NCBI GenBank assembly: GCA_023246055.1
Contig: JAHFJD010000002.1
Location: forward strand, 1-46,454
Origin: Candidatus Doudnabacteria bacterium
GTDB taxonomy: Bacteria; Patescibacteriota; Doudnabacteria; UBA920; 2-01-FULL-46-14
Reading direction: 5' to 3'
Length of the DNA: 46,454 bases
Shown here: piece by piece, positions 3,291-43,607 of the stretch
Layout: each line of letters begins with the position of its first letter
Position numbering within the stretch: position 1 is the first letter of the stretch
The notes under the pieces: model-generated
The model's database searches: none
Seen by the model: only the letters and a program-made list of their open reading frames with translations
Told to the model about the DNA's origin: nothing
Position numbers and translations under genes: made by a program

Positions 3291-3327
3291 CTCCCCCCCC
3301 TTACCAAGGGGGGGAATAAGAGGGGGT
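3291..3327. repeat. PE-1 GC-rich palindromic element, in the rpsL 5' leader
   Basis: ctcccccccc-ttaccaa-ggggggg followed by the G-rich tail aataagagggggt. Confidence 0.75.
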
Positions 3328-3480
3328 TAAATTAACTATAAGCCTAAACAAAAACTGATGGCATAACCTTCAGTTCTCGCCTACTTCGTTTATTTGGTAC
3401 CCATAAGCCTTGTGGGCTTTTGGTCCGCCGATGAGGCGGATCATCCGAAACCCGTGGATGGTTTGCCCCTTCATTTTTTT

Positions 3481-3527
3481 CTCCCCCCTCGGGGGAGATG
3501 TCTCGGTAAACCGAGACAGAGAGGGTT
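3481..3527. repeat. PE-1 element plus an adjacent small hairpin, in the rpsL 5' leader
   Basis: ctcccccc-tc-gggggag followed by the hairpin tctcgg-taaa-ccgaga. Confidence 0.75.
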
Positions 3528-3601
3528 TATTTCTTCCCAAATAAATCGACTTAAAAAGTGATTTCCCTAACAAAAGGGAGGTTTCTTATTCAATTGTGAT
3601 T

Positions 3602-3630
3602 ATTATATCAACAACAGCTATTGACGTCAA
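3602..3630 (-). promoter_or_regulatory. Candidate sigma70-type promoter of the rpsL operon
   Basis: Minus strand reads TTGACG, a 17-nt spacer, then TATAAT. The -35 lies in the palindrome TTGACGTCAA (3621-3630), which can also serve a plus-strand promoter. Confidence 0.6.
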
Positions 3631-3740
3631 CCCCGATTTATGCTAGTCTTTATGGTCATTATCGCCAATGTGTTATAACGGCTATAATGGTCTCTGTTTC
3701 GTAGTTTCGTTATTTGGAAAAACATGTCAGGAGGGGAAAA

Positions 3741-4526
3741 ATGAATACAACGCAACCGAATGAAGAAAGTTTGGAAGCATTGAAAAAACTGGCCAAAGAA
3801 CCGAGGGGCATAGGAGCAGTCCCTGACGAGGGACTGCTGCAAGCGATTGCGTCGTGCGGCATACTTGATCTCAACCAGGCTGTAAACGCGTACTATGCCG
3901 CAGTAAGTTCCATCGAAAAGGCGGGTGCCAGAATTCTTGAGCACCGCAAAAAGATCGATGACCTGCTGGAATGGAGTCACAGGACGTGGCTCGAACTGTC
4001 TGATCCCAACGAGCAGCTCAAGCATCTCTCGGAGGTCCGGAAAACGACGAACGGCCTTGAAACAGAACTCCTGACCCTGTCAGGGGAAACAATACCTCAA
4101 CTCCGAGAGGTCTCCCCCATCGGCCAGATCGAAATGGCCAGAGCTCTGTTTAGCTTCATCGAAGAAGTCCGTCGGGCTATTAGATGGTCGCGTGAGCTGT
4201 TCAGCGGCTATCAAGGACCGTTTCTCGAACGTTTTGTGCTTCCGGCTCTGGAGGGGACGCTTTCTTCCCAATGGCCAGACGACAGCATATGGAGGGACGT
4301 GGTCGATCAGCAGATCATCCAACGCATCCCGGATGACGAGTGGAAACAAGACCGGCCAGATCGAAGAGTAGTATTTGCAGCGCTCAAAAAGAACCTGACT
4401 CCGGAGCGCATCCACATTCTGGTCGTCGCCATCAGCGCCAGTGAGAAGTGTGACGCAGACGCGCTGAAAAGCCTAATCGAAAAACAGCGCGAAATGGCGA
4501 AAGAATATCCCGACTTTTCCTGGTAA
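3741..4526 (+). CDS. Hypothetical protein (261 aa)
   Basis: ATG at 3741 follows AGGAGG (3729-3734). The long ORF ends at a strong terminator. I recognised no family motif. Confidence 0.6.
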   Translation: MNTTQPNEESLEALKKLAKEPRGIGAVPDEGLLQAIASCGILDLNQAVNAYYAAVSSIEKAGARILEHRKKIDDLLEWSHRTWLELSDPNEQLKHLSEVRKTTNGLETELLTLSGETIPQLREVSPIGQIEMARALFSFIEEVRRAIRWSRELFSGYQGPFLERFVLPALEGTLSSQWPDDSIWRDVVDQQIIQRIPDDEWKQDRPDRRVVFAALKKNLTPERIHILVVAISASEKCDADALKSLIEKQREMAKEYPDFSW

Positions 4527-4540
4527 CGATGTTGCGGAAT

Positions 4541-4594
4541 CTCGCACAGTAGTTGTTCAAAGTCTCAACGAACAAGTGCTGTGCGAGTTTTTTT
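4541..4594 (+). terminator. Rho-independent terminator
   Basis: Stem ctcgcacag / ctgtgcgag with inner stem ttgttc / gaacaa, followed by a T7 run. Confidence 0.8.
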
Positions 4595-4615
4595 ATTTCA
4601 TAAATTTTTGCCAAC

Positions 4616-4654
4616 AAAAAATGCTCCGTATTCCAAATTTCGAAATACAGAGCA
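4616..4654 (-). terminator. Rho-independent terminator of the radical SAM gene
   Basis: Minus strand reads tgctctgtatt...aatacggagca followed by TTTTTT. It is convergent with the 4541-4594 terminator. Confidence 0.7.
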
Positions 4655-4671
4655 CTGCTACACGAAGTTCC

Positions 4672-5637: not shown

Positions 5638-5771
5638 TTACTCCTCCTATATACGGAAATTTGAAATTCCTTGCGAGCAGTATAGCCAACTCTGGAAATT
5701 TTTTCAATTTGCCACCTGGCCTATTTTATGCGAATCTTAAACCAGTACAATCCATGCCCAAAGGAGGCGGA

Positions 5772-7316: not shown

Positions 7317-7331
7317 GACAAACTTATCAAA

Positions 7332-7366
7332 CGGTCTTCGTAATCTACACACGAAGACCGTATTTT
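7332..7366 (+). terminator. Rho-independent terminator
   Basis: ggtcttcgt-aatctacac-acgaagacc followed by gtatttta. Confidence 0.65.
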
Positions 7367-7370
7367 ATGC

Positions 7371-7994: not shown

Positions 7995-8030
7995 AGCTAT
8001 TTACAACTCCTGATTAAAATTGTATACTTC

Positions 8031-8067: not shown

Positions 8068-8069
8068 TC

Positions 8070-8276: not shown

Positions 8277-8278
8277 TG

Positions 8279-9603: not shown

Positions 9604-9668
9604 GAAAAATACCGACAGATTTCATGATCATGAAATCTGTCGGTAAGGAGGAAAAACTGTTCCAGGAT

Positions 9669-10463: not shown

Positions 10464-11666
10464 TTAAAATGTCGAATAATAAGATACAGTGGTCTGATCA
10501 CAGGTGTCTTTGATCGACTGCTCGTCGAGCACGCTACAAAGCTGCTTGGCTCGGGCATCGTCATGCAGGTAAGAGATAAAATCTTTGACCGCACCAATTA
10601 TGCAATTGGTGCGCTGATCGAGGTTTTTGCCAAGGCCGCAGTTATGCTTCGTTTGCTCCACATTGCTCAAACTCCGCCCGGAAACATCGCGGCCCAGGCT
10701 TTGATAACAAGTATTGCGATGATTCTCCTCGACAGTAGAGCAAAGCTCAAATACGCGCGCAAAATCTCCGTTCGTGACTTTGAGCATGTAGCTCGTTTGC
10801 ATGAGGTAACAGGTACTTTTATACTGCTCCGCTACCGCATCGCAGGGATAGAGCGGGTCCTCTGGCTTGAGATATTTTGCATAGTGGTATTTGGTATCAA
10901 AAATGACATTCTCCATGAACGCGCCGCTCCAGCATGACGAGCGCTCCCACGAATCGGTAACTTTGTCACAAACCTCGAGAGATTTGAACAATTCATCATC
11001 ATAAATTGCCATGACGCCGTGTCCGAGTCCATGCACGCAGTTGTAATGATCGAAAGAATATCGTTCGGTGGCCGCTAGGGAGGCGCAAATCTCATTCATC
11101 TGTGACTCCAGTTTGGAGAGTCCAATCCGGCCGATGATTCCTTCTAGCACGCCGTGGTAATATCCGGACCAGCAAAAACTATCACCTTGCTTGTAGGCCT
11201 CAGCCACGTCCGCAAATTTTTTGGCGGCTTCATTGCCGATGACATGCGTGAGCGGATGACATTGCGACTGAACATAATCATTACCATTGTACCGCTCGCG
11301 CAAATCCGCGAGAGCTGCAGCAATCCCCACCCCTTTAACGACGGCAACGTAATAGCTCTGGTAGCAATCAAAATCCGACTGCTTGTCTCCGGTGCAAATG
11401 GACTGAACACTCACCGCCTCGTCTCCCCCACTCTGGAGGGAGAAATCTACCTGCTTTTCCCCTCCCCCTTGTGGGGAGGGGTTGAGGGAGGGGGTTGTCC
11501 CTGACGCAACCTCCCGATTCTCCGCAAAAGTTTGATTTACAAAATCCTGCACTGTGTTCGGCTCCCCTCCTTGTGAGGAGGGTTTAGGCGAGGACTTCAG
11601 TAAAAAAAATAATCCTGCCGCAGCGACAACAATAATAAAAATTGAAAAAAATATCTTTAGTTTCAT
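10464..11666 (-). CDS. Secreted or membrane-anchored Cys-rich hypothetical protein
   Basis: N-terminal TM/signal (IFFSIFIIVVAAAGLFFLL). Repeated C..G.GHG-like motifs. The N-terminal linker is built from three PE-1 copies. Confidence 0.65.
   Translation of the reverse strand: MKLKIFFSIFIIVVAAAGLFFLLKSSPKPSSQGGEPNTVQDFVNQTFAENREVASGTTPSLNPSPQGGGEKQVDFSLQSGGDEAVSVQSICTGDKQSDFDCYQSYYVAVVKGVGIAAALADLRERYNGNDYVQSQCHPLTHVIGNEAAKKFADVAEAYKQGDSFCWSGYYHGVLEGIIGRIGLSKLESQMNEICASLAATERYSFDHYNCVHGLGHGVMAIYDDELFKSLEVCDKVTDSWERSSCWSGAFMENVIFDTKYHYAKYLKPEDPLYPCDAVAEQYKSTCYLMQTSYMLKVTNGDFARVFELCSTVEENHRNTCYQSLGRDVSGRSLSNVEQTKHNCGLGKNLDQRTNCIIGAVKDFISYLHDDARAKQLCSVLDEQSIKDTCDQTTVSYYSTF
11423..11495. repeat. 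Two adjacent PE-1 elements inside CDS 10464-11666
   Basis: tctccc..gggaga and cccctccccc-ttgt-ggggagggg-ttgagggagggggt. They translate in-frame as SPQGGGEKQVDFSLQSGG. Confidence 0.75.
11561..11593. repeat. PE-1 element inside CDS 10464-11666
   Basis: gctcccctcc-ttgt-gaggaggg-tttaggcgagg, translated as PKPSSQGGEP. Confidence 0.75.
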
Positions 11667-11684
11667 TGTTTAAATTTTTCTAAA

Positions 11685-11755
11685 TCGGGCTGCCGAGAAT
11701 CGAACTCGGACTACATGCACCCCATGCATGCGTACTACCACTATACTACAGCCCG
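11685..11755 (-). tRNA. tRNA-Pro (anticodon GGG)
   Basis: Hand-folded cloverleaf: acceptor CGGGCTG/CAGCCCG with C1-G72; anticodon stem CATGC/GCATG; loop ATGGGGT; T-arm CCGAG-TTCGATT-CTCGG. No encoded CCA. Confidence 0.85.
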
Positions 11756-11762: not shown

Positions 11763-11795
11763 GCCCCCCTTGACGGGAGGGTTAAAGGGTGGGTG
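11763..11795. repeat. PE-1 element (intergenic)
   Basis: gcccccc-ttgac-gggaggg-ttaaagggtgggtg. Confidence 0.7.
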
Positions 11796-12563: not shown

Positions 12564-12634
12564 TCGATGGGGTAGGATTTGAACCTACGACTTTCAGCTC
12601 AATGCTGTCCTCTACCAGGCTGAGGTACCCACCG
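12564..12634 (-). tRNA. tRNA-like gene with a truncated, non-canonical anticodon arm (isotype unassignable)
   Basis: Acceptor CGGTGGG/CCCATCG, D-arm CCTC-AGCCTGGTA-GAGG and T-arm GTAGG-TTCAAAT-CCTAC are all intact. Only 19 nt (CAGCATTGAGCTGAAAGTC) sit where anticodon arm plus variable loop need 21-22. Confidence 0.45.
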
Positions 12635-12978: not shown

Positions 12979-13962
12979 CTAAGTTATCTTCCCCACAATG
13001 TTATTCAATTCCTCGTCAGAAAAAAACTCAATGGTGATTTTTCCGCTGCCTCTGGGGCCTTTGTTCACCTGAACTCGCGTTCCCAATTTGCCACGCAAAA
13101 GGTTCTCAAGCGAAGTCAAAAACGGGTCTGGAGTGAACATTTCTGCAACTTTGATCTTGCGCTGCGTGATTTCGCGAACCTTTGCTTCAATCTCCCTGAC
13201 CTTCATACCGCCTGCTAAAACCATTCTGAACATCTCAAGCATTTCATCACTATTGCGCAGCGTCAAAAGGGGCCTCGCTTGCCCTTCAGCGATCTTGCCC
13301 TCAATCAGTGCGCGCTGAATTTCAACCGGCAGATTGAGGAGGCGTAACAGGTTGGAGACTGTCGAAGGATTCTTGCCGACCTTTACCGCGATCTCGTTGA
13401 CCTTGAGATTGAATTCTTTTTGCAACCGCTCATAAGCCTTGGCCTCCTCAATCGGGTTGAGATCCGCGCGCTGCACATTTTCAATGAGTGCGATTTCGAG
13501 CTTTGCCTCGGAATTGATTTTTGGGGAAAGTAGAGCTGGAATTTTGGTGAGTCCCGCGAGCTTGGCTGCCCGAAATCTACGCTCTCCCACCAAGATCTCA
13601 TATTTACCAACACCCTGCTCGGTCACAACAAGCGGCTGGATAATCCCGTGGACTTTTATAGAATCTGCGAGCTCCCGCAGCTTCTCTGGATCAAAAATAC
13701 GCCGCGGTTGAAATTCGTTTGGTACAATATCGTTTAAATCTATTAGCGCGAGGGCTTGCCCGTCATGAGGAGAACGAAATCTCGCCTGCGGATCGGATTT
13801 CACTGTCGAGTGCAGTATAACATTGTTTCCGGAGGCAACCTCATCTCTTTTCCCCTCCTCATGAGGAGGGGTCGGGGAGGTCGTGGCCTCCAAATCCTCC
13901 TTGTCCCCCGAATCGTCAGCAAAGGAGGAAAAATTCCCGAGTTTAAAGACATCATCGTTCAT
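12979..13962 (-). CDS. parB: Chromosome partitioning protein ParB/Spo0J
   Basis: ParB-box GERRFRAAKLAG and HTH NEIAVKVGKNPSTVSNLLRLL. The N-terminal tail carries a PE-1 element. Confidence 0.9.
   Translation of the reverse strand: MNDDVFKLGNFSSFADDSGDKEDLEATTSPTPPHEEGKRDEVASGNNVILHSTVKSDPQARFRSPHDGQALALIDLNDIVPNEFQPRRIFDPEKLRELADSIKVHGIIQPLVVTEQGVGKYEILVGERRFRAAKLAGLTKIPALLSPKINSEAKLEIALIENVQRADLNPIEEAKAYERLQKEFNLKVNEIAVKVGKNPSTVSNLLRLLNLPVEIQRALIEGKIAEGQARPLLTLRNSDEMLEMFRMVLAGGMKVREIEAKVREITQRKIKVAEMFTPDPFLTSLENLLRGKLGTRVQVNKGPRGSGKITIEFFSDEELNNIVGKIT
13848..13881. repeat. PE-1 element inside parB
   Basis: cccctcc-tcat-gaggagggg-tcggggaggt, translated in-frame as TSPTPPHEEGK. Confidence 0.8.
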
Positions 13963-14606: not shown

Positions 14607-15299
14607 TTAAATAATTTTTTGCTTCCTAAAAAACTTTACCATTTTCTCTTCATCGTCTCGATCAAGTCTATTAATCTCCATGATTGTTACAAACCTTTCG
14701 ATGTGATAAACCCTCACAATCCAGTCTATCTCAAGTCGAGGATCATGAGGATAGAACCACAATGTCCGCTGCAGGGGATAAAAGTTCATCTCCTTCAGCT
14801 TGCGGCGCAAAGCGTCCGCAGCGGTCTTGTGTTCTTTAGTGGGTATGTCGGCTGCCACCTGCCACCACTTTTTGTCCCACTTTTTTGGTTTTTCCACACG
14901 CATGGTCCTAAATTGCATGCTTTTGATTTTTTTTCTGGCCAGGGCAGTCACATAAATCTTAAAATCTCCGACAGTAGGTCGCATGCCGATCAAGCCTTTA
15001 TGTTTTAGATAATAAAAAGACCGAACCACCTTGTTCTTCACTTCTTTCTGCGAATATCTCTTACCTTTTCTGGAAAAAAGTTTACCATAAGCCGCAAATA
15101 TATTCGGTGTCACAGCCGATAGAGCAATCATCCCAGCAGCCATCAAAATTACCAAAGCTATACCCCCGGCAGTTTTAACCGCCTCAATCTGTTCATTCGT
15201 CAAGGTTGGCTTTTTGTCTTTTGGTGCAGCAGATCGAACAATTTCACTGATTGTATTTTTTTGATATCCCATTAGGTCGTTCTTGTTTATTTTCTCCAC
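14607..15299 (-). CDS. Membrane-anchored protein with a PaaX-C/Cas2-fold-like domain
   Basis: One TM helix (GGIALVILMAAGMIALSAV). WDKKWWQVAADIPTKEHKTAADALRRKLKEMNFYPLQRTLWFYP resembles the PaaX C-terminal/Cas2-like pattern. Assignment is from memory. Confidence 0.5.
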   Translation of the reverse strand: MEKINKNDLMGYQKNTISEIVRSAAPKDKKPTLTNEQIEAVKTAGGIALVILMAAGMIALSAVTPNIFAAYGKLFSRKGKRYSQKEVKNKVVRSFYYLKHKGLIGMRPTVGDFKIYVTALARKKIKSMQFRTMRVEKPKKWDKKWWQVAADIPTKEHKTAADALRRKLKEMNFYPLQRTLWFYPHDPRLEIDWIVRVYHIERFVTIMEINRLDRDDEEKMVKFFRKQKII

Positions 15300-15421: not shown

Positions 15422-15490
15422 CGCATAAACAAAATCCCAAAGCAGCCTTAGATCTTTTCAACAACGCATCACCTTACCTGTGCTTCTCTG

Positions 15491-16102
15491 CTACGAGAGT
15501 TTGCGAACCATTTCTCCAATAAATCCATCGTATACTCCTCCGCTCCGGTAGCGAGCAGATGCGAGCGCGTACGCTGCGACTACTGCTTCCGCTTTTCCCG
15601 CAAGTCTTTCCACCAACTCCTTCCGGTTCGCCTCCCCACCACGAAGGCAGTCGAGAACAGCCTCCCAATCATTGGGGTCGCAAATGGCATACCGTTGACC
15701 CTTGGCTGCAGCCCGCAGCAGGGTCGGACCGCCGATGTCAGTGCTTTCGATGACTGATTCCAACGTCGAACCTGCTTTGGCAATTTCCGCGGTGAGCGGA
15801 TACATGTCGACCCACACGAGATCGATCCATGGAATCCGATCTCCGAGCTCTGTCAGATCTTCTGGCGTGTCAGTGGCAAGAAGACCGGCATAAATCTCCC
15901 TGGAAAGGGAAACCACTCGATGCCCCAAAATGGGATGCCCGACCATTTCTGCGATGTCTATGACTGAAATTCCTGCGTTCCGAAGCGCTTGGAATGTTCC
16001 ACGAGTCGAGAAAATCGTCCAGCCGTTATTGACGAGTTCTCTTGCTCGTTCCTCCAGACCGTTTTTGTTAAACAAAGTAAACAGCGCATTTCGCTTATTC
16101 AT
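15491..16102 (-). CDS. Stand-alone IMP-cyclohydrolase-like (PurH N-terminal MGS-like) domain protein with a degenerate signature
   Basis: ATG at 16102 after GGAGGAG. It aligns with PurH residues 1-200 (STRGT, DIGGPTLLRAAAK, AAY). The KTLHPxxHGG motif reads VSLSREIYAG. Confidence 0.7.
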   Translation of the reverse strand: MNKRNALFTLFNKNGLEERARELVNNGWTIFSTRGTFQALRNAGISVIDIAEMVGHPILGHRVVSLSREIYAGLLATDTPEDLTELGDRIPWIDLVWVDMYPLTAEIAKAGSTLESVIESTDIGGPTLLRAAAKGQRYAICDPNDWEAVLDCLRGGEANRKELVERLAGKAEAVVAAYALASARYRSGGVYDGFIGEMVRKLS

Positions 16103-19542: not shown

Positions 19543-19666
19543 AATGGGATTATAGCAGATAGCGATTAAACCATCCAGCCCTTATCTTTAATCTATACGT
19601 TTTATCATGTTAGCACGCTAATACAATTGCTTATAAAATATCGATATTATTGTCCTTTTTCTTCAA

Positions 19667-19745
19667 TGCCGCGGGAGGGAGTCGAACCCTCATGATCTTG
19701 CGACCGCGGGATTTTGCCGCGCCCGACCTCGCCTGGACAGATGTC
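19667..19745 (-). pseudogene. tRNA-like fragment: T-arm and 3' acceptor strand present, no complementary 5' acceptor strand
   Basis: GAGGG-TTCGACT-CCCTC-CCGCGGC-A is preceded by a CGCGG-CAAAATC-CCGCG arm that lacks U33. No GCCGCGG occurs upstream. It lies 11 nt from the 3' end of tRNA-Leu. Confidence 0.4.
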
Positions 19746-22752: not shown

Positions 22753-22806
22753 GTTCGTTAGAAAATTAATAATATTGCCGTGAACCCCCACCCACCGGAA
22801 TACCGG

Positions 22807-22844
22807 TTCCCCCTCTCCCGATTACAGGCGAGGGTTGCAACGGT
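22807..22844. repeat. PE-1-like element upstream of glyA
   Basis: ccccctctcccg-attaca-ggcgaggg-ttgcaacgg. It is adjacent to the palindrome accgg-aat-accggt. Confidence 0.55.
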
Positions 22845-22893
22845 GTTTCACACAAATGGCAATATCTTGAGATCAATGGTGAGAATTTTTGTC

Positions 22894-24066: not shown

Positions 24067-24715
24067 TGAGGATTTGGGTTTTTGTGATGGGCCCGCGGCG
24101 CAAAATTTTAATCTTATTTCCTTTTAATTGTACCATGGTTGATGACCGGACCCGCGGTAGTTTTCCACTGTCGAGACTCAAATCCGGCCGAAGTTTAGCG
24201 TTTCGGTATTGAAAATTGAGTTGTGAGACAGAATATGCGGTCGGATTGGTGGAGATGTTGGCGCTTGTGGCTGTAATTGGCCGTCCCAATTTTTTGACTA
24301 ATTGCAAAGCTATCTTGTTCTTTGGCACGCGAATCCCGACCGTGCCAGTTCCAGCCGAGAGAAGTGCAAAAGCGCTCCCTCTCCCCTTGCCCCCTCTCTT
24401 TCTCCCCCTCATGAGGGGGAGAAAGAGAGGGGGTCTGAGGGGTAGAATTAGTGTCAAGGTCCCCGGCAAAAACTCTTTAAATAATTTTTCTGCTGGCGCC
24501 GTAAACTCGGCATATTGTTTCGCCATTTTCAAGTCAGCAACTACGATATGAACGGGTTTATCCGGCCGTCGTTGCTTCATTTTGAAAAGCCGCCGCACTG
24601 CCCGCGCGTTCGTCGCGTCAACACCGAGGGCGTAAGCTGTATCAGTCGGAAAAACTACCGCCTTGCCAGCTTTAAGATATTTGATTGCATGATTTAAATT
24701 GGACAAGCGTGCCAC
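24050..24715 (-). CDS. tsaC: L-threonylcarbamoyladenylate synthase (YrdC/TsaC-domain protein)
   Basis: Contains VVFPTDTAYALG, LPGTLTLIL and GTVGIRVP. A PE-1 element is inserted between the last two motifs. Confidence 0.75.
   Translation of the reverse strand: MARLSNLNHAIKYLKAGKAVVFPTDTAYALGVDATNARAVRRLFKMKQRRPDKPVHIVVADLKMAKQYAEFTAPAEKLFKEFLPGTLTLILPLRPPLFLPLMRGRKRGGKGRGSAFALLSAGTGTVGIRVPKNKIALQLVKKLGRPITATSANISTNPTAYSVSQLNFQYRNAKLRPDLSLDSGKLPRVRSSTMVQLKGNKIKILRRGPITKTQILNALKF
24375..24443. repeat. PE-1 element (long form, 21-bp perfect arms) inside tsaC
   Basis: ccccctctctttctccccctc-at-gagggggagaaagagaggggg, translated as LRPPLFLPLMRGRKRGGKGRG. Confidence 0.85.
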
Positions 24716-24724: not shown

Positions 24725-25450
24725 CTAGTTGTCTAATTCCAAATCTTGGGGTACGGATATCTTTTTCCAGTGAGTTGCTTTTACCACCGAAAAATTACGA
24801 CCGTCTTTTACCATCTGTAAAAAAGTTTGCGGCAGTCCATATTCATTCGCCGGACTTCCAGCCGAGACGAGAGGATATTGAAACAGATCCTTATTTAAAA
24901 CATACGCCGAGGTATTTATCAATGCGCCGCCGCCTGCCGACCCGCGTTCCACTATATCAGCGAGTTCCCTTGCCTCATTGACCTTTACTACACCTCCTTG
25001 CAAAATTGAATTATCCGCGCCGCCTGGAAGCGGCCAAACTAATATAGCCAGCGGCTGTTTGATTAACATTTCGAGATCACCTTTGTAGTAAATATCGTCC
25101 CCTGACAAAACTAAAAATCTGTCGTTAAGCAGGTCCCTGCACTGGAAAACGGCATCGGCAGTGCCTTTCAACTCTTTTTGCTTAATATAAGTTATTTTCA
25201 GCTCTCTCCTCTCCCCCTTGTGGGGAGGAACTGAGGAAGTATGGATTACGAAGCTATCCCCAATCAATTCTTTTATCATCTCCCCTTTGTATCCGATGAC
25301 CACGATTACCTCTTCCACTTCATCAGGAAGCTCGGAAAGGTTATGTTCCAGGATTGTTTTATCCCCGATTTTGAGGAGCGGTTTTGGAGTACTCTTGGTT
25401 AAAACTCCCATCCTCGTCCCCCGTCCGGCGGCCAAAATTACACATTGCAT
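24725..25450 (-). CDS. Sugar-phosphate nucleotidyltransferase
   Basis: N-terminal ILAAGRGTRMG...KPLL motif. Carries an in-frame PE-1 insertion. Confidence 0.8.
   Translation of the reverse strand: MQCVILAAGRGTRMGVLTKSTPKPLLKIGDKTILEHNLSELPDEVEEVIVVIGYKGEMIKELIGDSFVIHTSSVPPHKGERRELKITYIKQKELKGTADAVFQCRDLLNDRFLVLSGDDIYYKGDLEMLIKQPLAILVWPLPGGADNSILQGGVVKVNEARELADIVERGSAGGGALINTSAYVLNKDLFQYPLVSAGSPANEYGLPQTFLQMVKDGRNFSVVKATHWKKISVPQDLELDN
25206..25239. repeat. PE-1 element inside the nucleotidyltransferase gene
   Basis: ctcctctccccc-ttgt-ggggagga-actgaggaag, translated as SSVPPHKGERRE. Confidence 0.8.
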
Positions 25451-25451: not shown

Positions 25452-25492
25452 GTTCCGCGTTTGTCTGCGTCAAGTCCGCGTTAGTCCGCGTT
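25452..25492. repeat. About 4 x 10-bp tandem repeat (AGTCCGCGTT-like) spanning the leuS stop
   Basis: gttccgcgtt tgtctgcgtca agtccgcgtt agtccgcgtt. The last unit encodes the leuS C-terminus NAD and the stop. Confidence 0.8.
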
Positions 25493-28400
25493 TATGACGA
25501 AATTAATTATTCTCCCTGGCACATAGATGAATTTGCCAATTTTCTTGCCGGCAAGGTGTTTCGCAATCACAGGATCGCCTTCCGATGTCTTTCTTGCATC
25601 GGCTTCCGTAGCATTGATATCCAACTGCACCGTCCCGCGTACTCGCCCATTGACCTGCACCGCAATTTTTACAAACTCATCTTTCATAAAGGCAGGATCA
25701 TATTCTGGCCACGGTTCGAGGTGAACCGATGTTTTGTGTCCAAGCTCACTCCACAATTCTTCGGCAACATGCGGTGCAAACGGAGCGAGGAGCTTCAACA
25801 ATATTTCTGCCTCAACGTTACCGGCGGGTGAATTATCTAATTCATTTGCCAAAATCATCAGTGCTGACACAGCAGTGTTGAATCTATAATTTTCAATATC
25901 TTCTGTAACCTTCTTGATTGTCTTGTGCAGTATTGTTTGAAGTTTAGAATTTGGAATTTCTTTTGAAATTTGAAATTTGAAATTTGAAATTCGGTATACC
26001 TTCTCCAACAATCTCCGGACGCCGATTATCCCGCGTGAATTCCAGCTCACTGTTTGGTCGTGGGGTCCCAAAAATAGCTCATACATGCGCAAAGTGTCTG
26101 CTCCGTAAAGCTTAACTATTTCGTCAGGGTTTACTACATTACCCCGACTTTTGCTCATTTTCTCACCATCCTCAGCCAGGATGATCCCATGCGGCACGCG
26201 TTTGGTGTAAGGCTCGGCGACTGGCACGATTCCCTGATCATACAAAAATAAATTCCAAAATCGCGAATACAATAAATGCAGAGTCGTATGTTCCATGCCG
26301 CCGAAATAAATATCCACTGGCAGCCAATGTTTCAGAAGCTTCCCATCAGCCAATTTAATCTTATTATCAGGATCAGTGTACCGGAGATAATACCAAGAAC
26401 TGCCAGCCCACTGCGGCATAGTGTTGGTTTCTCGCTTGGCCTGCCCGCCACAGTTCGGGCATTTCACACTCACCCACTTGTCTATTGCAGCCAGCGGAGA
26501 CTCCCCGGTTCCTGTCGGCTCGTATTTTTTCACATTGGGAAGCTTTACCGGCAAATCTTTTTCTGGCACTGGCACTGTCCCGCATGACGGGCAATGAATA
26601 ATCGGTATGGGTTCGCCCCAGTATCTCTGCCGCGAAAACACCCAATCACGGAGTTTATATTGGATTTTTTTAATCCCGTTTACAAGTTCAATTATTTCCC
26701 ATTTCGCCTTTTCCGAATCCATGCCATTGAATTTAGAGGAATTTATCAATGCACCATCACCTGAATAACAAATTAAGCCTTTATAATGGGGGTTATGGGC
26801 AAGCATATCCCAAACACTTTTTTTACTTCTAATCAAGGGCTCCCACTCTGTAAACTTTTTAAACCATTCTTCAGCACGTTCTAAAAAGTTTTTATGAACT
26901 TTATTTTTCATTACTAAAATATTCTCATTCCCAATAATCTCAACCCAGGCGTTATCTTTGATATGCTTCTGCACCAAGTTCACGAATTCATTAATTTGAT
27001 CTTTTTTTAATTCTACCCTGATATGTTCGCGGCCATTTGTGGGACTGGCAGCCAACGTAAAATTTATTCCTTTATTCTGTAATTGCTTTTTAAATTCATC
27101 ACTACCCTCTAAAGTCACAGTAACAACAATTGCTTTCCAAATGTTTCGCGGAGCTATCACTGGCCTAATAAGTAAACCGTATTTAATAGCAAATTCAAAA
27201 TCCCGCTCGTCATGCGCTGGCACGGCCATGATCGCACCAGTGCCATAGCCCATCAAAACATAATCAGCAACCCAAATCGGTATTTTTTCGCGAGTAGCAG
27301 GATTGATCGCCTTTACACCTTTCAATTCCACACCAGTCTTTTCTTTCTCAAGCGCTGACCTCTGAATATCAGTTTTCCTCTTCGCTTCTTCGACGTATTT
27401 CTCAATCTCTTTGATATTTGTAATTTGAGATTTGAAATTTTGTAACAGCGGATGCTCCGGTGCCAGGACCACATACGTCGCACCAAATATCGTGTCAGGA
27501 CGGGTAGTGAACACTTTGATGGCTTGCCCCTCTCCCCAGGCCTGGGGAGAGGTTGGGAGAGAGGTCGCTCTCAACAACGTTTCCAGAACAGCCGGTTCCT
27601 CTTTCCCACTCATATGTGGCTCGCTACCATTAACTCTGTTCAAATTAACACCTAATTTACGGGCAAAAGCTTCTCCGTCGGACATTGGCACGACATAATC
27701 CCTCGAATCATAGAGCAATGTAAATCTCTGCGCATTGCGTTTGATTTTTTCAAAATCAAAGCCTTTTTTGCAAGCCGTGGTAACCGAAGCACGAACTTTT
27801 TCGTCTAAAAACTTTCCTGAAAACGGAGTACATAACAATACTACCCCTTTGGCTTTCATCCCTCTTTCCAACAAACGCAATGCTACCACGCCGCCAAATG
27901 AATGACCGACTATGACTGTATTCTCATTAATATTACAATTATTAATAACAAATTGTGCTTGTTCTTCATCGTTTGGTTCCGAAGAGTTCGGCAGACTGGG
28001 CATTTGGACTCTGTGACGCAATTTTTCCAATTCAAACTTTAACCATGGAAAAAGATGACTGCTTGGAGAGCCGTTCCGGCCATGCAAGATCAAAAAGTTA
28101 GGATTTGTCATCCCGGGCTTGACCCGGGATCCAGAATCCGAATCCTGGATTCCCGCCTGCGCGGGAATGACAGATAACAGGAACTCTATCTCCGCTCCCT
28201 CGCTCTTGCCAATCCAGTTTTCCTGCTGGAGTTTGACTTGTGACGGCCACTCGGGAAGTTTTTTTAGACCTTCGAGGAGCTTTTCAGCGTATGCGGTGAT
28301 TTGGAGATACCATTGCCGCAGTTCTTTTTTCTCTACTGGCGTGCCACAGCGTTCGCATTTACCGTCAATGACTTCTTCATTCGCAAGACCAGTTTTGTCC

Positions 28401-28882: not shown

Positions 28883-28935
28883 CGACTTGATTATTTTAGC
28901 AAACAACGTAAAATATTGGAATCAGAGGAGGAACC

Positions 28936-29259: not shown

Positions 29260-30145
29260 AAATTCGAAAAAGCTTGCGGGCGTTGGCAGTGGTGACTTCT
29301 TCTACCTCCGACAAAGCGACACCCTTCATTTCTGCCAATTTTTCTGCCACAAATTTCACGAATACTGGTTCATTGCGCTTGCCGCGGTGCGGCAGGGGCG
29401 CGAGATACGGAGCGTCAGTCTCAAGAATAGTAGATTCGAGCGGCACACTTTTTACAACCTCGTCGCTTCTCCCAGTCTTGTCAAAAGTAATGATCCCATT
29501 GAGAGCAATGTATCCGCCTCGTTTGACAAACTCTTGTGCGATTGCGGTATTGCCAGTGAAGCAGTGGATTTCAAAACCATCACCTCCCACCCCCGCTTTT
29601 TCTCCCCCTCGGGCAGGGGGAGAAACTAAATAGTTATCGTCAAGAATTCGTAGGACATCCTCATACGCGTCCATTGTTCCTTCGCTCGGACGGCAGTGGA
29701 TCATGAGCGGCTTGCCAACCTGCTTCGCAAGTTCTATGTGCGCTATCATCACTCGCTTTTGATGCTCTTTGATTGCGGTCTCGTCCGCTCCTGCAGGAAG
29801 GCGAAAATAGTCCAAACCAAACTCGCCTATGGACACTACTTTGGTGGATTTCGCTACAAGATCAGCATATGCACCAGGGTCAAATTCTTCCTCACTGCTA
29901 TTGAACGACGCTCCCTCTTCCTGTAGATCGACATGGTGTTCAAATAAATGGATCGGGTGCAGAGCGACGGCTGCATACACACCATCAGAATAATTTTCCG
30001 CGAGCTCTACTGCCGCCCGCGAAGTTTCAAATTTTGTTCCTGCATTAATCATCCACACACCGCTCTCTAGTGCGCGTTTTATAACATCGTCAGCATCCTT
30101 GGAGAACGCCTGGAAATTGACGTGAGTATGGGTGTCAACGAGCAT
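29258..30145 (-). CDS. TatD-family metal-dependent hydrolase
   Basis: MLVDTHTHVNF with His/Asp motifs of the TatD family. Carries an in-frame PE-1 insertion. Confidence 0.85.
   Translation of the reverse strand: MLVDTHTHVNFQAFSKDADDVIKRALESGVWMINAGTKFETSRAAVELAENYSDGVYAAVALHPIHLFEHHVDLQEEGASFNSSEEEFDPGAYADLVAKSTKVVSIGEFGLDYFRLPAGADETAIKEHQKRVMIAHIELAKQVGKPLMIHCRPSEGTMDAYEDVLRILDDNYLVSPPARGGEKAGVGGDGFEIHCFTGNTAIAQEFVKRGGYIALNGIITFDKTGRSDEVVKSVPLESTILETDAPYLAPLPHRGKRNEPVFVKFVAEKLAEMKGVALSEVEEVTTANARKLFRI
29600..29624. repeat. PE-1 element inside the tatD-like gene (tail on the opposite side)
   Basis: ttctccccc-tcgggca-gggggagaa with a C-rich tail cctcccaccccc upstream. Translated as VSPPARGGEKAGVGG. 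Confidence 0.75.
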
Positions 30146-34002: not shown

Positions 34003-35091
34003 TCATTTAATAATCATACTTTTAAAATCTTTAGGGGGCTTTGGCAAGACCTCGTTGCCGAGATTCTTGACTAGCACCATATCTTCTATCCTCACCCCGC
34101 CCCAATTCTCAATATATATCCCAGGTTCGACAGTGACAACCATGTTCGGACGCAGAATATCCTCGGATGTGGCCGAAAAATTCGGCAATTCATGGATTTC
34201 CAATCCAACACCATGCCCGGTATTGTGGGTAAAATATTTGCCAAAGCCCGCCCGTTTGATGTGTCCGCGGGCTGCCTCGTCTATGAGCACCGCAGGATTG
34301 CCCGCAGTCGCTTTTTCAATTCCGCGCTGCTGCGCCTCCAAAACTGTATTATACACTGTTTCCTGCCTCCTCGTGGGGGTGCCGATGAAAAACGTGCGGG
34401 TAAAATCCGAATGATAGCCATCGACCAGGACGCCAAAGTCGAGGAGTAAAAAATTGCCGCGCTTGATTTTCTGCATGCTGGAAAGATGATGGGGAGCGGC
34501 TGCATTTGGTCCGAAGGCCACGATAGACTCAAAAGCCATGCCGCCCGCGCCAAACCGCACAGCCCAATCTCGCATCTTTTGCGATAGCGCGAGTTCAGTC
34601 ATCCCCGGAAGCGACATTTTCTTTACGGTCACAAAAATCTTATCGAGAATGGCCTGCGCTTTTCTAATGTATTTGATTTCCTGCGGGGTCTTTACCGCCC
34701 GTAGATTTTCAATGACATTGCTTGTCACTTCCCATTTCACACTTTTGAAGTCTTTTTTGAGGCGGCTGAATTCTTTGAGGCTAATCTTGTCTTCAATACC
34801 GATTCGACCTCTCCCCCAACCCCTCCCCAGGCCTGGGGAGGGTGGTCGGAGACCAGGAGAGGTCGAAAGCTTTTTAATTGATTTCACAAGGAGCGGCGAT
34901 TGTCTCTTTGCTCTGATTGTATACCGATCATCAACGTACAATTCCGCCCCGCGCTTGGTCACCAGTACTGCCCCCATTGACCCGGTAAACCCAGACACAT
35001 ACTGCCGATTTAATTTCGTCAGCACTAAAAAAGCATCCAGTGAATGCTCATCCAAATATCCTTGAATATTTTTAATTGAGTTTGGCTGCAA
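34003..35091 (-). CDS. Xaa-Pro aminopeptidase (M24 family)
   Basis: Contains HNTGHGVGLEIHE and VEPGIY. An in-frame PE-1 insertion sits in the N-terminal domain. Confidence 0.88.
   Translation of the reverse strand: MQPNSIKNIQGYLDEHSLDAFLVLTKLNRQYVSGFTGSMGAVLVTKRGAELYVDDRYTIRAKRQSPLLVKSIKKLSTSPGLRPPSPGLGRGWGRGRIGIEDKISLKEFSRLKKDFKSVKWEVTSNVIENLRAVKTPQEIKYIRKAQAILDKIFVTVKKMSLPGMTELALSQKMRDWAVRFGAGGMAFESIVAFGPNAAAPHHLSSMQKIKRGNFLLLDFGVLVDGYHSDFTRTFFIGTPTRRQETVYNTVLEAQQRGIEKATAGNPAVLIDEAARGHIKRAGFGKYFTHNTGHGVGLEIHELPNFSATSEDILRPNMVVTVEPGIYIENWGGVRIEDMVLVKNLGNEVLPKPPKDFKSMIIK
34805..34866. repeat. PE-1 element (long symmetric form) inside the aminopeptidase gene
   Basis: cgacctctcccccaacccctcccc-aggcct-ggggagggtggtcggagaccaggagaggtcg, translated as RPPSPGLGRGWGRGR. 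Confidence 0.85.
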
Positions 35092-37223: not shown

Positions 37224-38480
37224 ATGAATTTTTTTGAAATCCAAAAAAAAGACCCAAAATCGCAAGCGCGGCTCGGGGTCATCAATACCGCTCACGGACC
37301 AGTTAAAACTCCAGCTTTTTTGCCAATTGGCACTAGAGGCTCTGTCAAAACCGTGACCGCAGAAGAGCTCCGATTTTGGGGAGCGGAAATGATCCTGGCT
37401 AACACCTATCATCTCTGGATGCGGCCTGGAGATACGTTAATTGCCAGGGCAGGCGGTTTGCACAAATTCATTGGCTGGGACGGACCTATTTTTACTGATT
37501 CTGGTGGATACCAAGTCTATTCTCTGGGAGAAAAAATCGTCTCGTCATTGCGAGGTAACCCGAAACAATCTAATTCAGAGATTGCCGCGCGGAGTACCGC
37601 TCGCAATGACCTGCAAGAGAAAGGTCCGATTCTCAAAGGCATTAGCAATGTTGGAGTCGAATTTCGAAACGAGCTTGATGGAGCGACTCATGTGCTAACT
37701 CCAGAGGAATCAATCCAGATCCAATCAAACCTCGGATCTGATATTGCGCTCGTGCTCGACGACGTGCCAGCACTGCCGGCGAGCAAGAAACGGCTGGAGG
37801 ATTCCCTAAGGCTCACCTTGCACTGGGCCAAACGCGCCAAATCGCATTACGAAAAGATAATCGAAGCATCGGTGAACCCTGGCCAAAAACTCTATGGCAT
37901 TGTGCAAGGCGGAGATTTGGAAGAGTTGAGAGCAAAATCTGTTCAAGGTCTGCAAAAAATCGGGTTTGACGGATACGGAATCGGGGGGCTAGCGATCGGT
38001 GCCGTAGCAGATAACCCTGAAATAATGTACCGCGTGATCAAAGCTACAACTCCGCACCTCGAAGAAAACAAACCCCGACACCTGCTGGGTGTCGGTTATC
38101 CCGAACAAATTGTCAAGGCTGTGAGCCTCGGCATAGATACTTTCGATTGCGTCATTCCCACGAGAAACGCTCGTCATGCCCAGCTATTTGTGAATTCCAA
38201 GACCTCTCCTTTCTCCCCTCCTAGTGAGGAGGGGTCGGGGGAGGTTAAAAATTATGATCTCATCACCATCACGAACGCTCAATTCAAAGAGGACTTCACC
38301 CCAGTTGACAATACCTGCTCGTGCTACCTCTGCCTGCATCACAACCGCGCGTATTTGCGGCACTTATTCATGAGTGGGGAGCCGCTCGGCATCAGGCTTG
38401 CCACCATGCACAATCTGCGATTCTATCTAGATCTCATGGAAAAAATCCGCCGCGCTATTGAATTTGATTCGTTAGTTTAA
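37224..38480 (+). CDS. tgt: Queuine tRNA-ribosyltransferase with two in-frame repeat insertions
   Basis: Contains GWDGPIFTDSGGYQV, GIGGLAIG and Zn motif CSCYLCLHHNRAYLRHL. 418 aa versus about 375 typical. Confidence 0.92.
   Translation: MNFFEIQKKDPKSQARLGVINTAHGPVKTPAFLPIGTRGSVKTVTAEELRFWGAEMILANTYHLWMRPGDTLIARAGGLHKFIGWDGPIFTDSGGYQVYSLGEKIVSSLRGNPKQSNSEIAARSTARNDLQEKGPILKGISNVGVEFRNELDGATHVLTPEESIQIQSNLGSDIALVLDDVPALPASKKRLEDSLRLTLHWAKRAKSHYEKIIEASVNPGQKLYGIVQGGDLEELRAKSVQGLQKIGFDGYGIGGLAIGAVADNPEIMYRVIKATTPHLEENKPRHLLGVGYPEQIVKAVSLGIDTFDCVIPTRNARHAQLFVNSKTSPFSPPSEEGSGEVKNYDLITITNAQFKEDFTPVDNTCSCYLCLHHNRAYLRHLFMSGEPLGIRLATMHNLRFYLDLMEKIRRAIEFDSLV
37544..37610. repeat. PE-3 element inside tgt
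   Basis: gtcattgcgagg...(45 nt)...ctcgcaatgac, translated as SSLRGNPKQSNSEIAARSTARNDL. Confidence 0.8.
38203..38245. repeat. PE-1 element inside tgt
   Basis: cccctcc-tagt-gaggagggg-tcgggggaggt, translated as SPFSPPSEEGSGEV. Confidence 0.8.
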
Positions 38481-38900: not shown

Positions 38901-38968
38901 ATAATTTTCTTCTATTTAATTGTGTAAATGGGGCATAGGTACATTATAAACTCAGTACCTAAGAAGTC

Positions 38969-38988
38969 AAAAACCGCCACTAGGACGG
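38969..38988 (-). terminator. Weak rho-independent terminator after pnp
   Basis: Minus strand reads CCGTC-ctagtg-GCGG followed by TTTTT, 12 nt after the pnp stop. Confidence 0.4.
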
Positions 38989-38999
38989 TTTTGAAGCTA

Positions 39000-41225: not shown

Positions 41226-41362
41226 TATCTTTTGGTTTCTTCCGGCAATCGCGTTTTTGAGAAAATCCCGTCCTGTAATCGTACAAGCTAAGATCCTCTC
41301 AACAACGTTCCCGGAGAAACCCTTATCTATCACTCCCGTCCGCCTAAAGCGGAGGAATACAG

Positions 41363-41383
41363 TTACTTATTACTTATAACTTA
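41363..41383. repeat. 3 x 7-bp tandem repeat TTACTTA in the pnp 5' region
   Basis: ttactta ttactta taactta. The motif is related to the TACTTAC repeat at 53-80. Confidence 0.8.
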
Positions 41384-41454
41384 TCTTTTTGTATTTATGC
41401 AAGGATTTTACCAAATTCCACCGGCTTACGCAAGCCCGCTACATTTATAGTGAT

Positions 41455-43109
41455 TTACGCCCCAGGATTTCTGGTCACAAGGTTACTGACAATCGTCACA
41501 ATGGCATAAGCCATGATAATGATGACAATGCCGATGACAGCGCCGGTGATGGTTTTTTTGGCTTTTTCCGTGGCTTCCTCATTGCCGCGCGCGGCAATAT
41601 ACTGAAACCCGCCGACTAGCAAGAACAGGACAGCAATGCCGCCAGCAAAATACAGCATCCAGCCAATAGCCCTGGTGAGCAGGGAACCGAAATCCCTGAT
41701 ATCGACGAGGTAGTTTGGGGCAGGGTTTTGGATTCCACCGCTGCCACCTCCACCTGTGCCAGTATTTCCTGCACCGCCTGAGTTAGTGTTGTTTATTCCG
41801 CCACTATTAGTTCCCGCATTACCGGCACCAGCATTTGAATTCTGCACGTTAACAGAAATTTCTGCGGGAACAGCTTGGTTCCCTGAACTATCTTGACCTG
41901 TCGCCACAAATGTATGCTCGCCATTGGAAAGCGTACTGGTATCAAGATTGACAGTAAAAAAGGGGCGGCGACTCCGCTTCCCATAGAAACGTCATCGGCC
42001 TTGATGTCGGGACTAATATCATCCCGACTGCTCCCCCAATCAGATGCATAGACCGTAACTGGAACAGTACCAGAGACTGTTGAATCGTCTGCCGGGCTAG
42101 TGAAATGAATCGTCGGCGACTTTGGATCGCAGGACAGCCATTTGCCCGCGGCATTGGGAGAAACTCTCACGCTCACCGAAAGGCTTGAAGGATCAGAAAT
42201 ACTAGGCTCAACGGTGAGTACGGACTCGAGGCTATGAGCAGCTATTTCTGCGTCAGAAAGACCGTCGCGGAAAACGTCAATGGTTTTTTGTGCGCCTGGT
42301 TGAAGTGTGTACGTATAAACCAGCATGTCCTGCGTACGTATTGGTGGACCCGTTGGACATAGATGTTGAGCCGTGCCCTGGAACCCGCTATAGAGGTGAT
42401 TTCGCACCGTAAAAGTAACTGGGACTGATTTATTGTTGGTCAGTGTCATTTTTGTCTGCCACCCGTTAGGCCAATCGGGCCAGTTGTGCCAAAAATTCCC
42501 ATACGATGTAAAGAACACCTTCTGGTCAGGGTCCCAACTAGTTGGAATATCTGAACCCCAAACATCCCATCCCTTAAAATACGCATCTTCTAAACTATTT
42601 TGTGATGATCCCCGGATCGTGAAAAGATGAGGATCAAATGAGTAAAACGGCTTCGCTGAAATCCCATTGTAATCTATGCTCTCAATGATGACTGTGCCTG
42701 TCCACTGGAAGGGCCTATTATCTTGGACCCCAGGAAAAGAAACATTCATAAAATTCCAGTTCGTCCCTATCCATGGATTTGAAGGAGTGTAACCGCTAAT
42801 TTCGCGGGGTCCGTAATACGCGGAGCAACCGCCCGTTACATGCGGACAATCGATTACATAGTTTGGATCGTCCGATATGAATGAAACTTGTACCCATGTA
42901 GTATCTGGATTCGGATTGCCTATTCCAGCAGCAAAATCTTGGACTTCCCAGCCTGGAGAAATCTCTTTGGCATACGCTTCCATTCCGGTATATTCAAAGC
43001 GGATCTGTTTTGTGGCAGCTGCTGCTGGCAAGGCAAAATAAAATCCTCCTAAAAAGACACCTAAAATCAAAAAAAAATTGATAAAGTTCAGGAGGTTATT
43101 TATTTTCAT
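41455..43109 (-). CDS. Surface protein (signal peptide, Ig-like domain, Gly/Asn-rich linker, VirB2/TrbC-like two-TM anchor) interrupted by a -1 frameshift
   Basis: The zero frame (43109 to 41793) and the -1 frame (about 41990 to 41455) join at a C4T6 run (41956-41965). The joined read is ...GSGVAAPFFTVNLDTSTLSNGEHTFVATGQDSSGNQA. The C-terminus is AIGWMLYFAGGIAVLFLLVGGFQYIAARGNEEATEKAKKTITGAVIGIVIIIMAY. Confidence 0.6.
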
Positions 43110-43157
43110 GGCAACTTTGAATTTGGTTTCGGTGTAGGAATGACCTAACCATTTTCT

Positions 43158-43185
43158 GTCATTCCTGGGAAATGCGGGAATCCAG
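43158..43185. repeat. PE-2 element (half copy, intergenic)
   Basis: gtcattcctgggaaatgcgggaatccag. Confidence 0.7.
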
Positions 43186-43193
43186 ATAACGGA

Positions 43194-43460
43194 TCATTTC
43201 TTCAACTTCAATTTCTCCACAATCTTTTCGTGCCGTTTTTCGTCTTCGCCCTTGAGGTATCGAAGTAACCGGCGGCGGTTGCCAACCATCTTCAAAAGCC
43301 CACGGCGGGAGTGGTTATCCTTTTTGTGCTTCTCCAAGTGCTTTGCCACCTCTTCGATTTCCGTTGTCAAAATCGCGATCTGCACCTCGGGAGACCCGGT
43401 ATCACCCTTATGGGTCTGAAATTTTTTGATTATGGTTTCCTTTTGCTTATTCGACAGCAT
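43194..43460 (-). CDS. rpsO: 30S ribosomal protein S15
   Basis: ATG at 43460. Contains [14 protein letters not shown] and [15 protein letters not shown]. Confidence 0.93.
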
Positions 43461-43552
43461 GAAAAGAATATTAACATAAAGTTTCCTAGCCTGCAAGTCG
43501 TCAAAATTTCGTTTTTCTCTCCTGGGACGGGAAGAATCAAGGAGGAATCTTG

Positions 43553-43607
43553 CCTCTCCCTCTTCCATTCCCTCGCCCCCTTACGGGGAGAGTGTTAGGG
43601 TGAGGGG
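43553..43607. repeat. PE-1 element upstream of rpsO
   Basis: ccctcgccccc-ttac-ggggagag-tgttagggtgagggg. Confidence 0.75.

Follow-up and report, generated by a model that had tools for sequence, protein, structure and literature searches.

The closest described precedents for palindromic repeats inside protein-coding genes are the Rickettsia palindromic elements (RPEs), which are about 100–150 bp long. In the summary of Ogata et al. (2000) given in PMC10969869 they are described as roughly 150 bp in size with a conserved peptide. A second precedent is the system of repetitive extragenic palindromes (REPs), their REPIN forms and the REP-associated tyrosine transposase (RAYT), together called 'REPtrons' (PMC3733652). 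Here, we describe a family of GC-rich palindromes, PE-1, in a whole metagenomic contig of 46,454 bp (~47% G+C; hereafter the window) from Candidatus Doudnabacteria bacterium (contig JAHFJD010000002.1). The copies that lie within genes are lineage-specific insertions, near-identical copies occur at non-homologous sites in different species, and modules of the same hairpin-plus-tail type bound small cassettes encoding a DUF559 nuclease, which are present or absent as a whole at fixed sites. We consider it probable that PE-1 copies are solo, non-autonomous ends of DUF559 cassettes and that the cassettes have spread them.

The initial annotation of this contig compared PE-1 with the RPEs, and the resemblance is real at the functional level: both are dispersed palindromes that sit, with the frame kept open, in housekeeping genes unrelated to one another in a bacterium with a small genome, and both are tolerated as an extra peptide at permissive sites. 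PE-1 shows this in-frame palindromic insertion in ten copies, six of them by orthologue alignment. The likeness does not extend to size, composition or candidate partner gene. PE-1 measures 25–70 bp against the longer RPE, its arms are strictly pyrimidine/purine and are read in several frames, and its host belongs to the Patescibacteria and not to Rickettsia. PE-1 also lacks the CGTC tag found in RPE-4 and RPE-6 (PMC3733652). By size and by its peptides, which vary in both frame and sequence, PE-1 falls outside RPE-1 to RPE-10, the RPE consensus sequences not having been compared directly. We know of no partner gene for the RPEs, whereas PE-1 matches the ends of DUF559 cassettes.

The window carries the housekeeping genes fusA, rpsG, rpsL, parB, glyA, tsaC, leuS, tatD, metG, glyS, tgt, pnp and rpsO. 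Syntenic loci for comparison came from metagenome-assembled genomes (MAGs) of Patescibacteria, found by scanning species-representative genomes with the methionyl-tRNA synthetase (MetRS) of the window. The best MetRS matches, at 73–74% identity, are L002, L003 and L004, with L003 (Candidatus Doudnabacteria RIFCSPHIGHO2_01_FULL_46_14) being the closest described relative; L005–L009 and L025 are more distant Doudnabacteria-like loci. A search for closer relatives with the M24 protein returned none above 72% identity, and exact-sequence look-ups for closer relatives returned the same genome only. In the window, the pattern CTCCCC-N3–20-GGGGAG has nine matches against 0.04 expected. A census accepted hairpins whose 5′ arm is pyrimidine-only with ≥60% C, whose stem reaches ≥7 bp with no more than one mismatch and whose loop spans 2–8 nt. 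It finds 13 sites; 100 dinucleotide-preserving shuffles give 0.14 on average and never more than 1, and 19 control loci of other lineages (~310 kb, GC-rich ones included) give none. This explicit census with shuffles was used because a MAFFT alignment of 32 oriented modules placed the loops in different registers and gave no reliable consensus structure; a covariance model was therefore dropped. Two further copies, at 11763 and 43553, are degenerate yet recognisable, which accounts for every one of the 15 positions listed in the initial annotation.

Ten of the 15 copies are intragenic. All ten are in frame, translation reproduces exactly the peptides quoted for them earlier, and Pfam bears out the host gene names. 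ParB, TsaC, a nucleotidyltransferase, LeuS, TatD, an M24 peptidase and Tgt hold one copy each and a 400-aa membrane-anchored protein holds three, the latter checked by translation only. Aligned at codon level with their syntenic orthologues, six host proteins reveal these copies as inserts of ~14–16 codons and not ancestral sequence: 7–8 relatives, L002 and L004–L009/L025, lack the inserts of TatD, TsaC, the nucleotidyltransferase, M24, Tgt and LeuS wherever they have the orthologue. L003 has filled sites in TatD, TsaC, Tgt and LeuS, yet with another sequence and length, and is empty at the nucleotidyltransferase (42-nt) and M24 (48-nt) sites. Four filled sites are thus common to the window and L003, and two are found in the window only. 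The ParB peptide is absent from five orthologues, in a region that aligns poorly. Solved homologues of TsaC, TatD and Tgt do not contain the peptides, and HMMER alignments put the inserts at gaps or loops. In the AlphaFold2 model of the M24 protein the insert is the sole poorly predicted stretch, with a predicted local distance difference test (pLDDT) score of 65 against a mean of 93.9 and no secondary structure. The expected position in surface loops is consistent with these data, the M24 insert being a predicted low-confidence loop in a high-confidence model. The 15 copies are as follows.

E1, 3290..3331, + strand: hairpin and G tail; upstream of rpsL (− strand), 12 nt from its start codon; stem of 9–10 bp.
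E2, 3478..3528, + strand: intergenic, three-part, with hairpin TCTCCCCC/GGGGGAGA, second hairpin at 3499–3518 and G tail AGAGAGGG.
E3, 11420..11445, no strand assigned: weak, tail-less hairpin; in-frame copy within the N-terminal linker of the 400-aa protein; peptide DFSLQSGGDE.
E4, 11455..11497, + strand: 9-bp hairpin and G tail GAGGGAGGGGG; in frame in the 400-aa protein; peptide TTPSLNPSPQGGGEK.
E5, 11561..11594, + strand: in frame in the 400-aa protein, directly past its N-terminal hydrophobic segment (residues ~5–23); peptide SSPKPSSQGGEP.
E6, 11763..11795, + strand: degenerate, intergenic, adjoining tRNA-Pro (11685–11755); under the strict census threshold.
E7, 13846..13882, + strand: in frame in the variable N-terminal region of ParB; peptide TTSPTPPHEEGKR.
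E8, 22793..22840, − strand: three-part, in the glyA 5′ leader; 29/30 identity to L003 at the orthologous site.
E9, 24377..24446, no strand assigned: two-tailed, with a 21-bp stem free of mismatches; in-frame copy within TsaC/Sua5; peptide LRPPLFLPLMRGRKRGGKGRG; net insert of 16 codons compared with L002 and L004.
E10, 25200..25240, + strand: in frame in the nucleotidyltransferase; peptide SSVPPHKGERRE; 42-nt insert in the window only, the site being empty in L002, L003, L004 and L009.
E11, 27526..27569, + strand: in frame in LeuS; peptide ATSLPTSPQAWGEG; LeuS peptide spanning the insert ATSLPTSPQAWGEGQAIK.
E12, 29583..29626, − strand: in frame in TatD; peptide VSPPARGGEKAGVGG.
E13, 34805..34865, no strand assigned: two-tailed (CGACCTCTCC...GGAGAGGTCG); in frame in the M24 peptidase; peptide RPPSPGLGRGWGRGR; 48-nt insert in the window only.
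E14, 38201..38245, no strand assigned: two-tailed; in frame in Tgt; peptide SPFSPPSEEGSGEV.
E15, 43553..43611, no strand assigned: degenerate, two-tailed, intergenic, upstream of rpsO.

The design first proposed for the element, a C arm, a loop, a G arm and a G tail, describes its core; the full element is a two-level palindrome made of C tail, C arm, loop, G arm and G tail. When the copies are oriented and stacked, the common layout is a C arm, a loop, a G arm, a short spacer and a G-rich tail that often ends in ...GAGAGGTCG, the commonest module end (14 of the 36 oriented modules). Many copies have a complementary C-rich tail on the other side, one of the two tails is often missing, and some copies hold a second small hairpin between arm and tail. 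The folding energy of the two-level hairpin ranges from −17 to −58 kcal/mol. The arm sequence varies among copies and both arms of each copy remain complementary, which is descriptive only because the copies were picked for having stems; the sequence shared by the outer tails exceeds what composition would require. The proposal that the element is stop-free in all six frames holds only partly, with stops arising in the loops and spacers. Rfam contains no family matching PE-1 elements, including the conserved copy in the glyA leader. This copy, E8, reported at 22807 as lying outside genes, does so, at an orthologous intergenic site common to one relative (L003) and absent, with its leader, in L002 and L004. 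The glyA leader including the three-part PE-1 (window 22770–22850; L003 20500–20620) is conserved between species whose proteins are ~64–75% identical.

PE-1-related copies occur in the relatives at other, non-orthologous positions: five to six in L002, three to four in L003, two in L004 and one each in L006, L008 and L025. The LeuS copy E11 is identical at 41/42 positions to L002 6484–6525, which is not in LeuS at all and forms the right end of the DUF559 cassette of L002. Such identity at an unrelated site of another species, whose MetRS is 74% identical, indicates mobility. Within the window E11 is identical to E13 at 34/36 positions, and E1 matches an L002 copy (11636–11667) at 29/32. When metagenome contigs were scanned for exact occurrences of a 35-nt subfamily pattern, eight groundwater contigs matched. 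Their in-frame copies belong to a CapA-like protein, to RsmA, which has three, and to a cyclase; others are located upstream of dut or where small DUF559 ORFs have their 3′ ends. As for viral vectors, neither a 39-nt degenerate module pattern nor a DUF559 protein scan had a match in IMG/VR. Copies are found in several frames, in both orientations and in non-coding DNA; taken with the near-identity at non-homologous sites, this fits a dispersed DNA repeat better than a conserved peptide. Copies within a genome are more alike than their orthologous counterparts, and at the orthologous filled sites the window and L003 have hairpins that are different yet both perfect. Recurrent insertion, replacement of old copies via the hairpin or gene conversion could each produce such differing hairpins at shared sites. 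The inter-domain loop of the M24 protein holds diverse Pro/Ser- and Arg/Gly-rich inserts in many related proteins of the Candidate Phyla Radiation (CPR; P0002, P0009, P0011, P0015, P0019, P0024, P0042 and P0056), which suggests that this loop is a hot spot for several palindromic element families.

The small ORFs found at PE-1 copies encode DUF559 proteins (PF04480, Pfam E values of 1e-35 to 1e-40), which are Vsr-like PD-(D/E)XK endonucleases. A DUF559 / MTES_1575-like ORF is the sole ORF of a cassette of ~0.45 kb, in which a hairpin, a G tail, the ORF, a C tail and a hairpin follow each other, the G tail doubling as the Shine–Dalgarno sequence. In L030 (from the species of L002), L035 and L036 an inverted second copy stands just upstream of the DUF559 ORF; the order there is a hairpin, in some cases a second hairpin, a G tail GGGAGAGGTCG, 2–7 nt, the start codon, the ORF, a C tail CGACCTCTCYCC and a hairpin, and the ORF itself reads through the right copy (...ATSLPTSPHAWGEG before the stop). 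L008 holds a fourth, divergent DUF559 gene with its own matching pair of ends. Inverted modules flank DUF559 in L002/L030, L035, L036, L008, L037, L041, L042, L045, L047 and L049, with arms of 18–42 nt that are 75–94% complementary. In 11/11 cassettes examined, from CPR bacteria to Gallionellaceae, the terminal inverted repeat is a PE-1 module (hairpin and G-rich tail), the G tail adjoins the start codon and the C tail the stop. PE-1 therefore has termini in common with a gene-carrying element, as MITE-type elements do (E11 at 41/42 positions; 11/11 cassettes). The three-part architecture of E2 (3478–3528) and E8 (22793–22840) is that of the left ends of the L008 and L035 cassettes.

A search with the DUF559 core extends this arrangement: 48 of the 119 close homologues end in PE-type tails (...LSPGPSPTSVRGE, ...PHPDPLPSGEREK) through read-through of the right end, and 7/119 start with such a tail, with Gallionella and Ferrigenium among the sources. 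The C-terminal tails are of the 'SP.PSP...GRGE' type and are found in ~40% of the close homologues (proteins P0121–P0240). In the DNA of two tail-bearing and four tail-less homologues, from genomes of 37–66% G+C, inverted hairpin-plus-tail modules are present at all six genes; the arms reach 42 nt with 93% complementarity in L041 and 32 nt with 94% in L037, and L045 has extra module copies. The DUF559 genes of Gallionellaceae and of a 66% G+C bacterium (L037/L041) share hairpin-plus-tail inverted ends. Whole cassettes, moreover, occupy fixed sites in some genomes and are missing there in relatives. This variable occupancy by a small nuclease gene is a homing-type trait of the DUF559 cassette and not of PE-1 itself. 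L008 has a 468-bp cassette (15455–15922) where L025 has an 8-nt spacer between LeuS and TsaC (15192–15204), and the start of the L008 TsaC appears to fall within the cassette's right end (MADIFSRKGRR...). The L002 cassette lies between TatD and LeuS and is absent from the window and from six relatives. Judged by title and abstract, none of the papers listed by a full-text search of the DUF559 literature deals with repeats or mobility.

A repeat family that flanks one gene in inverted orientation leads to the reading of solo copies as ends of that gene's element, the same logic that linked REPs to RAYTs. [quoted passage not shown] Candidate routes are break-and-copy repair, hairpin recombination and the fill-in of snapped-back hairpins, which could yield the two-tailed forms. 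Copies arriving in genes would survive only if they are a multiple of three nucleotides long, leave the sense frame free of stops and hit a permissive surface loop; pure pyrimidine/purine arms cannot encode stops, which helps tolerance. The survivors would be translated as disordered loops rich in Pro/Ser/Leu and then in Gly/Glu/Arg. We regard PE-1 as a variant of the known intragenic REP/MITE-like palindromes, with DUF559 as a new candidate partner. In the literature searched we found no description of such a link to DUF559, nor of intragenic palindromes in the CPR, in line with the earlier remark that none was known for this lineage.

Several observations weigh against the derivation of PE-1 from DUF559 cassettes. 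There is no DUF559 gene in the 46-kb window, and the partner gene is thus unproven in this genome. We know of no activity of a DUF559 protein on these repeats. With the nearest relatives at ~60–75% protein identity, neither a target-site duplication nor an exact element boundary can be defined. The two-tailed solo copies are 'inside-out' with respect to the cassette ends, and a simple model of MITE formation by deletion leaves them unexplained. The excess of open frames is modest (4.4/6 per element compared with 3.7 for random segments), intergenic copies are weakly enriched (5/15 against 15% non-coding DNA, p = 0.06), and the translation of the inserts as extra loops is a prediction from frame and stop-freeness only. 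A broader proposal is more tentative, and we would rate it somewhat below an even chance: DUF559 genes with hairpin-plus-tail inverted repeats would be an unrecognised, phylum-spanning minimal mobile element with PE-1-type palindromes as its non-autonomous offspring, which in the CPR would routinely become new surface loops (LeuS, Tgt, TsaC and TatD). As part of this proposal, the offspring may include the widespread 'PSP...GEG/GRGE' peptides of many bacterial proteins.

We may wonder whether PE-1 is instead an ordinary REP/REPIN repeat mobilised by a RAYT (an IS200/IS605 Y1 transposase) encoded elsewhere in the genome, the link to DUF559 being incidental. The two systems have in common short GC-rich imperfect palindromes, many solo copies and the inverted flanking of a small nuclease or transposase gene; PE-1 also has the size of a REP (an imperfect palindrome of 20–40 bp in many copies) and inverted-dimer-like forms, and a 46-kb portion of the genome leaves room for a RAYT outside the window. 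In-frame palindromes as such are not new either, since intragenic REPs are documented in several species (PMC3733652). However, the REP/RAYT system has only occasional intragenic copies, REPs being mainly extragenic, whereas two thirds of the PE-1 copies in the window (10/15) are intragenic. The gene between the inverted modules is in 11/11 cases a DUF559 PD-(D/E)XK endonuclease and not an HUH Y1 transposase, and the conserved GTAG/CGTC end of REPs is missing: GTAG, which seemed enriched by eye, is found in just 4/36 oriented modules and CGTC/GACG in 1/36. An ordinary REP is therefore an unlikely identity for PE-1. A comparably low probability attaches to a non-mobile origin, in which template switching or slippage creates similar low-complexity palindromes time and again within permissive loops, or in which they are retained because the Pro/Gly-rich peptides or the hairpins are useful. 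The same loops do hold different sequences in relatives (the M24 loop; LeuS, TsaC and Tgt in L003), stems at orthologous sites are still perfect although divergence is saturated, two species have the glyA-leader copy in common and the G tail of the cassettes serves as a ribosome-binding site. Local origin does not readily explain the near-identity of 42-nt and 36-nt copies between non-homologous sites and between species, the exact 35-nt matches found on other contigs in genes unrelated to these, the spread of copies over different frames, both orientations and non-coding DNA, or the likeness of the outer tails beyond the demands of composition.

Still less probable, in our view, is that PE-1 copies are cis-acting signals (for DNA uptake, recombination, mRNA stabilisation, termination or G-quadruplex/triplex formation) under selection across the genome, with the coding copies as by-products. 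Their density of ~0.3 per kb in the window, their presence in the 5′ leaders of rpsL, rpsO and glyA and their stable hairpins (−17 to −58 kcal/mol) would suit such a role, but an invariant core motif as in uptake sequences is absent, no U-tract follows the hairpins, most copies lie in ORFs, where such signals would harm, and the same sites are empty in close relatives. Some tails supply the four G-runs of a G-quadruplex, yet judged by eye the motif is confined to a few copies. As for assembly or read-end artefacts, the general difficulty of assembling GC-rich hairpins is the one thing that speaks for them, and we regard their probability as negligible: the TatD copy is identical (61/61) in an independent Logan assembly (L001), an ENA contig encodes proteins of equal lengths, related copies occur in many MAGs and metagenomes of different projects, and 10/10 intragenic copies keep the frame.

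Taking PE-1 as the probable solo ends of DUF559 cassettes, three other kinds of element offer partial parallels. Like MITEs with their ISs (PMC10969869), PE-1 is short and non-autonomous, shares its termini with a gene-carrying element and forms in-frame fusions with host ORFs. It is much shorter than typical MITEs and its parent encodes no known transposase, the cassette ORF being DUF559 only; in addition, the two-tailed solo copies are not the simple product of joining a left end to a right end by deletion. The DUF559 fold is known from Vsr and the homing endonuclease I-Bth0305I, with which DUF559 clusters (PMC3424549), and not from a transposase. Homing endonucleases (I-Bth0305I, PMC3239194; the fractured-gene family, PMC2677866) and DUF559 are indeed small selfish nuclease genes of the Vsr/DUF559 cluster (PMC3424549), sporadic and variable in site; known homing enzymes reside in introns or inteins without terminal inverted repeats, whereas DUF559 cassettes are free-standing, have hairpin-plus-tail repeats at their ends and come with many solo copies. 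Organellar palindromes (Volvox, PMC2670323; Nematomorpha, PMC6649704) are likewise selfish-looking hairpins that invade compact genomes, including their coding parts, but belong to eukaryotic organelles and differ in sequence. The small dispersed repeats of cyanobacteria treated by Elhai and colleagues in 2008 are reportedly a further analogue. For the organellar palindromes, we know of no associated nuclease cassette.

Other repeats were noticed in the window. LeuS contains, at 28100–28172 (sense on the − strand), a second and unrelated in-frame palindromic element with GTCAT...ATGAC bounds, three hairpins and the peptide VIPAQAGIQDSDSGSRVKPGMT; it is also present in L003 and L004 at the same site, is absent from L002, L005–L007 and L009, and is much shorter in L008 and L025. 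A third in-frame palindromic element, GTCATTGCGAG...CTCGCAATGAC with the peptide SLRGNPKQSNSEIAARSTARND, lies in Tgt at 37545–37610 (+ strand, residues 108–129) and is absent from the TGT of Z. mobilis and from L007–L009, L003 and L004 having a shorter, different insert. More palindromes of the GTCATTCC type occur in the intergenic and repeated region, at about 43137–43165 and 44250–44257, the one near 44250 reading ...VIPAEAGIQ... in a probably spurious ORF. LeuS (25481–28906) also has an inserted alpha/beta serine-hydrolase domain (PF06821, E value 6e-8), common to L003, L004, L008 and L025; two stretches, residues about 269–440 and about 589–716, correspond to the serine-hydrolase insert and to a second segment of ~128 aa that does not align to L003. 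Tandem repeat units of ~1.05 kb, with segments 77–93% identical, fill 43704–46404, each with a paralogous ORF of 104–109 aa (43837–44151 and 44843–45172) that has no Pfam match. Direct repeats of 40–50 nt, 90–92% identical (14548–14587/15317–15356 and 15373–15422/16190–16239), flank PaaX-like and MGS-like genes, and the first pair holds a palindrome, TACGCAATTGCGTA, of operator-like appearance. Finally, a tRNA-like half at 19665–19723 (− strand) stands beside tRNA-Leu, is 81% identical to its 3′ part and is not called a tRNA by any tool, and the sequence at 12564–12634 (− strand) is a tRNA according to Rfam and not according to ARAGORN.

Selfish palindromes that enter essential proteins are classically those of Rickettsia and of organelles. 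The same process is now seen in the Candidate Phyla Radiation, with a far smaller element and with a concrete candidate partner, the DUF559 nuclease, which is very common and functionally unassigned. The inserts inflate protein lengths and make spurious ORFs on the opposite strand, and they can thereby mislead the annotation of CPR genomes. The REP literature still asks what mobilises repeats that have no dedicated transposase (PMC3733652). If the link to DUF559 is true, a second enzyme class would join the REP/RAYT paradigm and DUF559 would gain a biological role. This would also explain a recurrent source of Pro/Ser- and Gly/Glu/Arg-rich loops and of N- or C-terminal tails in proteins.

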